From: Candidatus Vampirococcus lugosii
GTDB lineage: Bacteria; Patescibacteriota; Gracilibacteria; Absconditabacterales; Absconditicoccaceae
Reading direction: 5' to 3'
Assembly (NCBI RefSeq): GCF_018420025.1
Contig: NZ_JAEDAM010000042.1
Span: 1-8,241 of the forward strand
DNA: 8,241 nucleotides
Below, piece by piece: positions 3,647 to 6,867 of this stretch. The position numbers and the translations under genes are program-made. The notes below the pieces were generated by a model, which did not search any database, was not told the DNA's origin, and worked only from the letters and a program-made list of their open reading frames with translations. Positions within the stretch are counted from its first letter, which is position 1; each line of letters begins with the position of its first letter.

Positions 3647-4744
3647 ATGAAAAAAGCACTTATTACTGGTATTACTTGACAAGATGGAGCTTATTTAGCT
3701 GAATTGTTACTTGATAAATGATATGAAGTTCATGGAATCAAAAGAAGAGCTTCACTTTTCAATACTGATAGGATAGATCATCTTTTTCAAGATCCACATA
3801 CTGTAAATAAAAATTTTATACTGCATTATGGAGATTTAACAGATAGTACCAATTTAATAAAGTTAGTATCCCAAATTCAACCAGATGAAATTTATAATCT
3901 TGCTGCACAATCTCATGTGGCCGTGAGTTTTGATATGCCTGAATATACTGCAAATTCTGATGGATTGTGAACTTTAAGACTGCTTGAAGCTATAAGAGTT
4001 GCAAACCTTGAAAAGAAAACAAAATTTTATCAAGCATCGACAAGTGAATTGTTTGGATGACTTAATTATAATAGACCAGAAGCTTGATACAATGAAGATT
4101 CCCCTATGCATCCAAGAAGTCCATATGGAGTTTCAAAACTTTATGCTATGTGGATAACAAGAAATTATAAAGAATCTTATGGTATGTTTGCTTGTAACGG
4201 TATACTTTTCAATCATGAATCTCCTTTAAGATGAGAAACTTTTGTAACAAGAAAAATAACAATAGCTGTTGCTAAAATATACTTATGATTACAAGATAAA
4301 CTATATCTTTGAAATTTGGATGCAAAAAGAGATTGGGGGCATGCAAAAGATTATGTAAAAGCTATGTGGCTTATGCTACAACAAGAGGAACCAGAAGATT
4401 TTGTTATAGCAACTTGAGAATCTTATACTGTAAGAGATTTTGTAAATTGGTCTTTTGAAGAAGCTTGAATCAATATAAGATGGGAATGAACTTGAATAGA
4501 AGAAAAATGATACAATGCAAAAACTTGAGAATGTTTGGTAGAAGTAGATTCAAGGTATTTCCGTCCTGCAGAGGTAAATTATCTATTATGAGATAGCACA
4601 AAGGCAAAAGAAAAACTTTGATGGCAACCTGAATATACTGTAAGAAATATGTGTAAAGAGATGGTAGCTTGTGATATAGAATCTTGCAAAAAACAAGAAA
4701 TTTTAAAAAAACATGGTTATGAGATTTTAAATCAATATGAGTAA
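3647..4744 (+). CDS. gmd: GDP-mannose 4,6-dehydratase
   Basis: Table-25 ORF of 365 aa, from ATG 3647 to TAA 4742-4744. Translation begins [46 protein letters not shown]. It continues through [96 protein letters not shown] and FRPAEV..LLGD..KA...LGW. This is colinear with canonical Gmd over the full length. The 16 in-frame TGAs fall on conserved Gly positions, for example 3677-3679 in GITGQDG and 3719-3721 in KGYEVHG. Confidence 0.95.
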
Positions 4745-4769
4745 TTATTTTACAATTTAATATAATGTT

Positions 4770-5942
4770 ATGACTATTAGACTTATAAAATCAAGTTTCT
4801 TTAATGAAAGAAAAACAAAAGAAAAACTTTGTAATTTTATAATGGACAGTGAAAAACTTAGTATATGAAATTATTGTGCTCAATTTGAAAAAAAATATGC
4901 TAATTGGCAAGAAAGAAAATATTGTATATCCTTTAATAGTTGAAGTTCTGCAAATTTAGCTTTAATACAAGCTATGATAAATATGTGAAAACTTAAAAAA
5001 TGAGATAAAGTTTGATTTTCTTCTTTATCTTGGGCTACAAATGTTATGCCAATTATTCAATTATGACTAGATGCAAGTCCAGTTGATGTAGAGTTAGATA
5101 CTTTAAATATTTCATTAAATACTTTTAAAAAATCAGTAGAGGAAAATAATATAAAATGTTTATTTATTACAAATTTATTATGATTTTGTGATAATATTGA
5201 TGAAATTGAAAAATATTGTAATGAAAATAATATATTATTATTGGAAGATAATTGTGAGTCAATGTGAACTGTTTACAAATGAAAAAAACTTTGAAATTAT
5301 TCTTTAGCTTCTACATTTTCAACTTTTGTATGACATCATATGTCAACTATAGAATGATGAATGGTGTGTACAGATAATAGAGATTTGTATATTATGCTTA
5401 ATATGGTAAGAGCACATGGATGGGATAGAAATTTATCACCCGATATACAATCAGAATTAAGAGAAAAATATAATATTGACAAAGCATTTTATTCAAAATA
5501 TACATTTTATACCTTAGGCTATAATTTAAGACCCAATGAAATTACTTGATTTTTAGGTTGTGAGCAAGTTCAATATTTAGATAAAATAGTAGAAAAAAGA
5601 GTTGATAATTTTAAAAAATTTGTAAATGCTGTAAACTCAAATGAAGATTTTTATAATCTAAAATACACACATATAGAAAAATTGTCAAATTTTGCGGTTC
5701 CAGTAATTTGTAAATCAAAAGAAATCTTAGAAAGATATATTGATATTTTTACAAAAAATGGAATAGAAATCAGACCAATTGTATGATGAGACCTTACACA
5801 ACAATTATTTTGGAAAAACATTTATGGTGAAAATAATAGTCATACAAATGCAAAACTTATACATGAACAATGATTTTATTTTGGAAATAGTCCTGAATAT
5901 ACTAAAGAAGAAATAAATTTAATTATTGAATCACTTAAATAA
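4770..5942 (+). CDS. colD: GDP-4-keto-6-deoxy-D-mannose 3-dehydratase (ColD-type). It belongs to the PLP/PMP-dependent DegT/DnrJ/EryC1 fold.
   Basis: Table-25 ORF of 390 aa, from ATG 4770 to TAA 5940-5942, with 17 in-frame TGA. Motifs shared with ColD as I recall it are 'SFNSGSSANLALI', 'LKKGDKV..SSLSWATNV', 'LLLEDNCESMG', 'RAHGWDRNL', 'LGYNLRPNEITG' and 'GIEIRPIVGG'. The segment that carries the Schiff-base Lys in aminotransferases reads 'STFVGHHMSTIEGGMV' (GHH..EGG at 5331-5360). It has His-His and no Lys, which is the signature of the ColD/E1 3-dehydratases. The size fits ColD (about 390 aa) rather than the larger Fe-S E1/DdhC. The track ORF 5361..5549 is an internal fragment. Confidence 0.87.
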
Positions 5943-5943
5943 A

Positions 5944-6867
5944 ATGAATAAAAACTCAAAAATCTATATAGCCTGACATACTTGACTTGTATGATGAGCT
6001 ATAGTAAAAAAATTAAAAGAACTTGGTTACAATAATCTTATTCTTAAAACAAGACAAGAATTAGATTTACTTAATCAAAAAGCTGTTTATGATTTTTACA
6101 AAAAAGAAAAACCTGAATTTGTTATAAATTCAGCTGCAAAAGTATGATGAATAAAAGTAAATATGAATTATCCGGCTAACTTTTTGTTTGAAAATCTTCA
6201 AATGCAAAACAATATTATCTGGTGAGCTCATTTATATGATGTAAAAAAACTACTATTTTTAGGTTCAAGTTGTATTTATCCAAGGTGATGTCCTCAACCT
6301 ATGAAAGAAGGATATTTTCTTGATTGAAAGGTTGAACCTACAAATGAATGATATGCACTTGCAAAAATAACTTGAATAAAACTTTGTGAAAAAATAAATG
6401 AGCAATTTTGAAAAAATTTCATTTCTTGTATGCCAACAAATATTTATTGACCTTGAGATAATTTTGATCCTGAAACTTCTCATGTAATACCATGACTTAT
6501 AAGAAGAATACATGAAGCAAAAGAAAATAATATAAATGAAGTTATAGTTTGGGGAACATGAAAAAGCAGAAGAGAGTTTTTATATGTAGATGACTTAGCA
6601 GAAGCTTGTATTTGGATGTTGGAAAACTATAATAAGAAAGAGTTTTTAAATATTTGAACATGAGATGATATAAGTATAAAAGAACTTGCTTATGTTATAA
6701 AAAATTTAGTTTGATATAACTGAAATTTAAAATTTGATGCTACAAAACCTGACTGAATGCCTAAGAAACTTCTTGATGTAAGTAAAATAAATAATCTATG
6801 ATGGAAATATAAAACTAATTTTATTAATTGATTAGAAAAGACCTATAAATGATTTAAAAAATTATAA
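5944..6867 (+). CDS. fcl: GDP-L-fucose synthase family epimerase/reductase (Fcl/WcaG). In this context it is probably a GDP-L-colitose synthase (ColC).
   Basis: Table-25 ORF of 307 aa, from ATG 5944 (1 nt after the colD stop) to TAA 6865-6867, with 24 in-frame TGA. Translation begins MNKNSKIYIAGHTGLVGGAIVKKLKELGY. It continues through SAAKVGGI..N..YPA.F, LLFLGSSCIYPR, EPTNEGYALAKITGIKLCE, MPTNIYGPGDNF, TSHVIPGLIRRIHEA, VWGTGKSRREFLYVDDLAEA, NIGTGDDISIKELA, GYNG...FD..KPDGMPKKLLDVSK and LGW. This is colinear with E. coli Fcl from memory, including the catalytic Cys (SSCIYP), Tyr/Lys (YALAK) and His (SHVIP). Confidence 0.92.

Follow-up and report, generated by a model that had tools for sequence, protein, structure and literature searches.

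A gmd-colD-fcl gene module in Candidatus Vampirococcus lugosii with GDP-L-colitose as its predicted product

The window analysed here is a single stretch of 8,241 nucleotides (nt), with a G+C content of ~20%, from Candidatus Vampirococcus lugosii (Absconditabacteria/SR1). It carries a module of three genes, gmd, a colD-like gene and an fcl-type gene, for which GDP-L-colitose is the best-supported product, with a probability of roughly two in three (0.68) on the sequence comparisons described below. Colitose, a rare surface sugar, is 3-deoxy-L-fucose, and GDP-L-fucose itself is probably made alongside. A first-pass annotation of the window had placed gmd, colD and fcl next to one another, with a gap of 1 nt between the last two. 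This adjacency is exact, as are the coordinates given for the three genes, and their ATG and TAA ends have been located. The gmd gene ends 25 nt upstream of the colD-like gene, 1 nt separates the colD-like stop from the fcl-type start, and the latter two genes are probably translationally coupled.

In the proposed pathway, Gmd would convert GDP-mannose to GDP-4-keto-6-deoxy-D-mannose. The ColD-like enzyme would then remove the 3-OH group through pyridoxamine 5′-phosphate (PMP) and His189 to form GDP-4-keto-3,6-dideoxy-D-mannose, with the PMP regenerated from glutamate. The Fcl-type short-chain dehydrogenase/reductase (SDR) would epimerise C5 and reduce C4, resulting in GDP-L-colitose. We infer this step from the chemistry of GMER: given the 3-deoxy intermediate, a 3,5-epimerase/4-reductase would yield colitose because epimerisation at C3 is void in a sugar that has lost its C3 hydroxyl. 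A GT10 glycosyltransferase encoded downstream, together with three glycosyltransferases encoded upstream, would then place the sugar on a surface glycan other than lipopolysaccharide (LPS).

Gmd and the ColD-like 3-dehydratase

The characterised colitose cluster of E. coli O55:H7 CB9615 (NC_013941.1; L004:3701-5787) was retrieved for comparison. The Gmd of the window scores 579 bits on the equivalog model TIGR01472, above its cutoff of 415, and matches the Pfam family GDP_Man_Dehyd at E=2.9e-153. It shares 65% identity with E. coli Gmd, and 14 of the 16 TGA codons of the gene lie opposite glycine in that protein. These matches identify it as a GDP-mannose 4,6-dehydratase.

The ColD-like protein belongs to the DegT fold, with a match to Pfam PF01041 over residues 15-389 (189 bits, E=1.8e-55). 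The closest solved structure is that of E. coli O55 ColD (2GMS, E=6e-64), and the two proteins align end to end, residues 19-389 on 19-389. As a single sequence, the protein scores 220 bits against ColD, 143 bits against E1, the CDP-6-deoxy-L-threo-D-glycero-4-hexulose 3-dehydrase, and 80 bits against GDP-perosamine synthase. A profile built from ten members of its family keeps this order, with 280 bits for ColD, 185 for E1, 128 for 9WVY (another 3-dehydratase) and 116 for perosamine synthase; other aminotransferases stay at or below about 110. The NCBIfam collection does not contain a ColD model and so cannot tell ColD from E1. Its best model for the ColD-like protein is RfbH (197 bits), which is likewise the best model for authentic ColD (263 bits), and both scores fall below the cutoff. 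A blastn search of E. coli with the window DNA matched gmd and fcl only, not colD.

It has been shown that in 3-dehydratases the Schiff-base lysine of the active site is replaced by a catalytic histidine, and that an Fe-S cysteine motif separates E1/SpnQ from ColD (PMC8987622). In the ColD-like protein, H189 of FVGHHMSTIEGG aligns with H188 of ColD, which is the position of the aminotransferase lysine. The position of the catalytic histidine is fixed by the ColD mutant entries 3B8X and 2R0T (H188N, H188K). The HH pair is unchanged in 15 of the 15 aligned family members, E. coli ColD included, and the catalytic core of the family is under strong purifying conservation. The [2Fe-2S] cysteines of E1 (RDCYCAPGCDNTC) lie opposite R, L, I and L in the ColD-like protein and opposite R, L, K and V in ColD. 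In addition, four nearly invariant cysteines (C36, C52, C150 and C314) are present in the ColD-like family from the candidate phyla radiation (CPR) and DPANN archaea; none of them occurs in E. coli ColD and none lies at an Fe-S position of E1.

Taken together, the profile scores and the alignment at the catalytic position identify the protein as a 3-dehydratase and not an aminotransferase. The ColD assignment made in the first-pass annotation is supported on both counts, as ColD scores ahead of E1 and perosamine synthase and the lysine is replaced by histidine; the checks suggested there favoured it as far as computation reaches. An aminotransferase would lead instead to GDP-perosamine or another GDP-4-amino-4,6-dideoxyhexose. 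Pfam and the Prokaryotic Genome Annotation Pipeline (PGAP) do file the protein as a DegT/DnrJ/EryC1/StrS aminotransferase, and ColD and perosamine synthase have their substrate and fold in common. However, authentic E. coli ColD carries the same generic annotation, so the name is without weight. GDP-perosamine synthase aligns with the N-terminal half of the protein only, at 80-116 bits as against 220-280 bits for ColD. The aminotransferase is rejected because histidine replaces the catalytic lysine, in every aligned member of the family, and we regard it as highly improbable.

The Fcl-type enzyme, the predicted product and the wider family

The top match of the third enzyme among solved structures is E. 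coli GMER (1BSV, E=2.5e-102, 346 bits). The residues S107, C109, Y136, K140 and H179 (GMER numbering) are all kept, and ColC shares all five. The protein is 51% identical to E. coli Fcl (341 bits) and 44% identical to E. coli O55 ColC (242 bits), while E. coli ColC and E. coli Fcl are 39% identical to each other. On the NCBIfam Fcl equivalog model NF047922, which has a cutoff of 500 bits, E. coli Fcl scores 551, the window protein 443.3 and E. coli ColC 304. The window protein fails the equivalog cutoff, with a family match at E=5e-133. PGAP names it “GDP-L-fucose synthase family protein”, and authentic ColC is given the same name. The window protein and the NCBI protein listed under this name for Candidatus Vampirococcus lugosii are 100% identical. 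The third enzyme is thus Fcl-type by sequence and not an E. coli-type ColC: the comparison places it in the Fcl family, as had been expected, but a closeness to ColC does not hold. The first-pass annotation had also considered that an Fcl-family enzyme could make GDP-fucose, which is reinforced by a sequence more Fcl-like than ColC-like. The enzyme should in principle be competent to make GDP-L-fucose as well. Some GDP-L-fucose is expected because the near-canonical Fcl and the ColD-like enzyme would compete for the same Gmd product.

The genomic behaviour of the third enzyme is that of a ColD partner. Gene order was compared across 81 independent loci, 21 of which hold gmd, a colD-like gene and an Fcl-type gene together. 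The order gmd-colD-fcl is kept in 20 of these 21 complete loci, across CPR bacteria and DPANN archaea, with gaps that are mostly tens of nucleotides (<100 nt). Six close relatives of the Fcl-type enzyme (68-71% identity) were picked for their long contigs, blind to ColD. All six lie directly 3′ of a gene for a DegT protein of 387-388 amino acids (aa), itself located after gmd, and the HH motif is present in the three of three DegT sequences examined from these loci (L087-L089). The partners adjacent to ColD in CPR and DPANN are nearly all Fcl-type, with the E. coli-ColC type in two basal loci only (L082 and L084). In the SR1 RAAC1 genome, gmd, a NUDIX gene, colD-like and fcl stand in a row.

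This gene order bears on the possibility that the locus is in practice a GDP-L-fucose operon that supplies the GT10 enzyme, with the ColD-like enzyme diverting little or serving another substrate or pathway. The identity of the third enzyme to Fcl and its score on the Fcl model (443 bits, as against 304 for authentic ColC) favour such an operon, as do the fucosyltransferase family of the downstream gene and the members of the ColD-like family that occur without gmd. The kinetics of a characterised ColD-type enzyme point in the same direction, as it is slow (kcat 0.17 per s, Km 840 µM; PMC10440746) and Fcl could outcompete it. On the other side, colD sits between gmd and fcl, 1 nt from the latter, in an order that is conserved, and its catalytic core is under strong purifying conservation. 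The ColD-like neighbour of six out of six blind-picked Fcl-type relatives would be hard to explain were ColD irrelevant. A fucose operon in practice is therefore considered unlikely, and GDP-L-colitose remains the preferred product.

A different GDP-3,6-dideoxyhexose stereoisomer, or a GDP-heptose substrate, would also employ enzymes of these families. The ColD homologues of C. jejuni use GDP-6-deoxy-4-keto-heptose, with several stereochemical outcomes (PMC10440746). Sequence does not reveal the stereochemistry of the C4 reduction, and the characterised ColD lies outside the clade of the window protein. Nonetheless, the Gmd is at equivalog level and 65% identical to E. coli Gmd, and separate epimerase and reductase genes, as found in the heptose pathway, are absent from the module. 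The partner enzyme retains both Cys109 and His179, the pair for epimerisation, and the Ser/Tyr/Lys triad, a combination that predicts the L-xylo configuration of colitose. Another stereoisomer or a heptose is improbable on this evidence, more so than the fucose operon, and the colitose reading is retained.

The ColD-like family comprises at least 594 confirmed loci among GTDB species genomes, of which the best 80 were sampled for lineage. These 80 come mostly from CPR bacteria (Gracilibacteria, Absconditabacterales, Peribacteria, Saccharibacteria, Levybacteria, Gottesmanbacteria and Parcubacteria) together with DPANN archaea. In a neighbour-joining tree rooted on E1 and tested by bootstrap, E. 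coli ColD is the sister of the whole ColD-like family. The tree places the window protein in a sister clade of ColD, not in the same orthogroup. Within the family, it lies in a clade with 100% bootstrap support whose members all have in-frame TGA codons, with gmd and fcl linked where the contig allows. The other early branches of the tree are also linked to gmd.

A number of observations weigh against GDP-L-colitose as the product. Identity between the ColD-like protein and E. coli ColD reaches just 34%, as compared with 62-67% among the characterised ColD-type enzymes (PMC10440746), and 100 of 100 bootstrap replicates leave E. coli ColD outside the family. Gly188 stands in the window protein and in most of its family where E. 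coli ColD has Ser187, although this serine is not conserved among characterised dehydratases and is a weak feature (bioRxiv 10.1101/2021.09.04.459008). As described above, the third enzyme has more in common with Fcl than with ColC. The genes manB and manC, which supply GDP-mannose, were found neither in the window, in line with the first-pass annotation, nor within 8-10 kb in the recoded relatives. One derived cluster of the tree, with ~40 of the 83 sampled members (L010-L042 generally; neighbour-joining bootstrap 69%), does not have gmd nearby. Its members keep the HH motif, do not carry the Fe-S cysteines and have other SDR enzymes as neighbours. Finally, a Levybacteria member (L086:431-1603, JAUSNA010000055.1) adjoins two SDR genes and a gene whose product resembles a glucose-1-phosphate cytidylyltransferase (267 bits on TIGR02623, which has a cutoff of 300).

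Since there are gmd-less members, at least one of them with a CDP-glucose-type nucleotidyltransferase, GDP specificity is not family-wide, and we infer the GDP substrate of the window’s enzyme from its gene context. Columns that separate gmd-linked from gmd-less members number only six; the window protein has the gmd-linked consensus at four of them and the gmd-less consensus at two. The gmd-less loci of the L086 type hint that CDP-3,6-dideoxyhexoses may be reached by a ColD-type route independent of the reductase E3.

Some variation in the neighbourhood of the module was also seen. In SR1 RAAC1 (L002:9518-9985) and in L006, L008 and L009, which are SR1, Gracilibacteria and Absconditabacterales relatives, gmd and colD-like are separated by a NUDIX gene that is GDP-mannose mannosyl hydrolase-like. 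It is absent from the 25 nt between these two genes in the window. One Absconditabacterales protein of 572 aa (P0024) stands in its gene call as a fusion of NUDIX and DegT, which may be an artefact of read-through. In the JGI metagenome contigs L090-L092 (Saccharimonadales-like), gmd-colD-fcl is followed by an open reading frame (ORF) of 115-128 aa and an opposite-strand DUF2142 membrane protein in a conserved arrangement. These two products may be acceptor-side machinery for the sugar.

The operon, its genetic code and the surface glycan

The window is a single seven-gene glycan-biosynthesis operon on the + strand (Table 1). Under translation table 11, the longest ORF in the window does not exceed 107 aa. 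When TGA is read as sense, seven ORFs tile the + strand, separated by 3, 3, 31, 25, 1 and 42 nt. The operon therefore has members beyond those described at first, namely three genes upstream of gmd and a GT10 gene downstream of the fcl-type gene. The genes g1 and g2 are classed as GT4 glycosyltransferases. The product of g3 is possibly a glycosyltransferase as well; it gave no Pfam match, and its NCBIfam match to the BFO_1060 glycosyltransferase model is weak (40.6 bits, cutoff 200).

Table 1. Genes of the seven-gene operon in the window
Gene and predicted product	Position	Strand	Details
g1, GT4-type glycosyltransferase	43..1005	+	320 aa, 12 in-frame TGA=Gly; Pfam Glycos_transf_1 36.9 bits, Glyco_transf_4 28.8 bits; 3 nt to g2
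g2, Glycos_transf_1 glycosyltransferase	1009..2199	+	396 aa; PF00534 43.9 bits; 3 nt to g3
g3, possibly glycosyltransferase	2203..3615	+	470 aa, 21 TGA=Gly codons; sits before gmd
gmd, GDP-mannose 4,6-dehydratase	3647..4744	+	365 aa; TAA 4742-4744; TIGR01472 equivalog
colD-like, PMP-dependent NDP-4-keto-6-deoxyhexose 3-dehydratase	4770..5942	+	390 aa; ATG 4770, TAA 5940-5942; His189 in FVGHHMSTIEGG
fcl-type, GDP-4-keto-6-deoxymannose 3,5-epimerase/4-reductase family SDR	5944..6867	+	307 aa; NCBIfam GDPFucSynFcl
g7, GT10 (alpha-1,3-fucosyltransferase-like) glycosyltransferase	6910..8079	+	389 aa; Pfam Glyco_transf_10 (PF00852)

In this window TGA encodes glycine and not tryptophan, which confirms genetic code 25. 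Against the E. coli homologues, glycine lies opposite 43 of the 57 TGA codons of gmd, colD-like and fcl-type, and tryptophan opposite one of the 57. For the 17 TGA codons of colD-like, 92% of the residues opposite them in 76 non-recoded homologues are glycine. TGA is the main glycine codon of the seven ORFs (111 TGA as against 33 GGN), tryptophan remains TGG (26 codons) and all seven genes stop at TAA. Database relatives called with code 4 show tryptophan at exactly the TGA positions of the window, an independent sign that the conserved residue is glycine. V. lugosii has been published as a code 25 organism in which UGA encodes glycine, and the code-25 SR1/Gracilibacteria organism with an epibiotic or predatory life put forward in the first-pass annotation is correct (PMC8080830). 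The independent Logan assembly SRR13241709 matches the window at 99.97% identity over 6,666 nt. Contamination derived from the host of the predator was considered and rejected because TGA encodes glycine in all seven genes.

Recoding has also left traces in the databases. The ColD-like gene of L005 (JBBQWB010000226.1, labelled as a Bacteroidales metagenome-assembled genome) has 14 in-frame TGA codons and that of L009 (CAZLWR010000004.1, labelled Peribacteria) has 10; both fall in the recoded clade with 100% bootstrap. These contigs look to come from code-25 organisms and to be mis-binned or mislabelled. The entries P0001/L001 (Logan SRR13241709), P0002, P0007, P0037 and P0048 result from code-4 gene calls and have tryptophan at every TGA position. 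The sole difference between P0001 and the ColD-like protein of the window is 17 Gly-to-Trp changes, giving an apparent identity of 96% for a true identity of 100%. Code-4 mistranslation lowers apparent identity and would spoil structure prediction.

The last gene of the operon, g7, starts 42 nt downstream of the fcl-type gene and matches PF00852 at 50.9 bits (cutoff 23.9). Residues 225-313, in the C-terminal half of its product, align with the donor-binding region of the H. pylori alpha-1,3-fucosyltransferase 2NZW (E=5.5e-12), where YKFNFVLEN...HISEK...VPVYLG of g7 corresponds to YKFNLCFEN...YVTEK...IPIYWG of the H. pylori enzyme. All remaining matches of g7 to solved structures at E<1e-5 are GT10 fucosyltransferases. 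The GT10 and GT11 families use donors of the GDP-beta-L-fucose type, and the product of g7 is a candidate transferase for GDP-L-colitose or GDP-L-fucose. Genes of either family recur beside the module, with GT11 following it in Gracilibacteria where the window has GT10. It has been reported that the GT11 enzymes WbgN and FUT2 accept both GDP-colitose and GDP-fucose (PMC11987014).

V. lugosii has a genome of 1.3 Mb and a Gram-positive-type wall, and lives as an epibiotic predator of Halochromatium, whose cells it kills (PMC8080830). The SR1 RAAC1 genome is without genes for lipid A and LPS (PMC3812714). Given a relative that lacks LPS genes and a wall of this type, the acceptor would therefore be a wall polysaccharide, a capsule or a glycoprotein, not an O-antigen. 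The analogy with O-antigens that was drawn at first does not transfer to these organisms, which do not have LPS (PMC8080830, PMC3812714).

In the searchable library, colitose and CPR did not occur together in any paper, and among the top-ranked results of a broader search there was none that brought colitose together with CPR, SR1 or Gracilibacteria. The genes noted in the SR1 RAAC1 paper are those for dTDP-rhamnose only (PMC3812714), and the V. lugosii genome paper describes glycosyltransferases and an elaborate surface but does not mention fucose, mannose or colitose (PMC8080830). A survey of complete genomes has reported that colitose pathway genes are broadly distributed across phyla (PMC7725333). 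The first-pass annotation had no description of colitose to point to for SR1 or Gracilibacteria. The module is not confined to V. lugosii: the SR1 RAAC1 genome (2013) has it, and so do hundreds of genomes from CPR and DPANN. The window holds a predicted, previously unremarked instance of a known pathway; what makes it interesting is the divergent ColD clade, the Fcl-type partner, the LPS-less host and the spread across CPR and DPANN.

In E. coli O55:H7, the RefSeq name of ColD is “DegT/DnrJ/EryC1/StrS family aminotransferase”, that of ColC is “GDP-L-fucose synthase family protein” and that of the colitosyltransferase WbgN is “alpha-1,2-fucosyltransferase”. As authentic ColD, ColC and WbgN carry such names, standard annotation hides colitose pathways. 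In the organisms discussed here, the pathway would be masked in the same way, under “DegT aminotransferase” for the ColD-like protein and “GDP-fucose synthase family protein” for its partner, and many database copies are in addition mistranslated with tryptophan at TGA.

To our knowledge, colitose has so far been tied experimentally to Gram-negative O-antigens, and we know of little on the surface chemistry of CPR bacteria. Attachment to host cells is central to CPR life, and the 3,6-dideoxyhexoses count among the strongest known determinants of antigenicity and recognition. If the present reading is true, colitose or fucose glycans would be widespread in ultra-small LPS-less symbionts of two domains, and the CPR-type pair of ColD and Fcl would represent a second way of making colitose, independent of the first. 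A broader proposal may be put forward as speculation, which we think somewhat doubtful as a whole. CPR and DPANN would share a large clade of Fe-S-independent, His-type 3-dehydratases. The gmd-linked form, together with an Fcl-type synthase, would make colitose common on LPS-less episymbionts, possibly as a determinant of host recognition or attachment, and the gmd-less branch may use CDP-sugars independently of E3.

Comparison with known systems

E1 (DdhC/AscC/RfbH; 3BCX) shares with the ColD-like protein the fold and the replacement of lysine by histidine. It exceeds the latter in length by ~45 residues, contains RDCYCAPGCDNTC, a Cys-rich [2Fe-2S] segment, and requires the reductase E3. At the profile level, the match of the ColD-like protein of the window to E1 is ~95 bits weaker than its match to ColD. 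Fcl/WcaG/GMER (1BSV) has the five catalytic residues in common with the fcl-type product. Canonical gmd-fcl operons, such as that of the colanic acid cluster, do not contain a ColD-like gene, whereas the Fcl type of the window and its closest relatives directly follow one.

The GDP-3,6-dideoxyheptose pathway of C. jejuni HS:5/HS:11 employs a C3-dehydratase that depends on pyridoxal 5′-phosphate/PMP and is recycled by glutamate, followed by C5 epimerisation and C4 reduction (PMC10440746). The C. jejuni dehydratases share 62-67% identity with E. coli ColD, act on heptose substrates and are accompanied by a separate epimerase and reductase (PMC10440746). The window differs in having a single bifunctional Fcl-type enzyme and a true Gmd as the 4,6-dehydratase. 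Candidatus Organicella extenuata, a verrucomicrobial endosymbiont with a reduced genome, has a predicted ColD and ColC and provides a precedent for a tiny, host-dependent genome that relies on exogenous precursors (PMC8204192). It belongs to a different phylum and has an LPS-bearing envelope, and it is likened to the window here by its description.

The closest known system is the colitose pathway of E. coli O55:H7 and Y. pseudotuberculosis (Gmd, ColD/WbdK and ColC/WbdJ; 2GMS, 3B8X), which uses the same three enzyme families as the window. E. coli ColC and the fcl-type product are both Fcl-family SDR proteins of 307 aa, and genes for a NUDIX hydrolase and for fucosyltransferase-family proteins are found close to the module in E. 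coli as well as in the relatives of the window. The arrangement of the genes is different. In E. coli O55, colC-colD lies beyond gnd, apart from gmd-manC-manB, whereas the window has one tight gmd-colD-fcl operon with neither manB nor manC nearby. The E. coli colC and colD genes overlap by 4 nt, in place of the 1 nt spacing of colD-like and fcl-type in the window. The transferase also differs, being the GT11 enzyme WbgN in E. coli and a candidate GT10 enzyme in V. lugosii.

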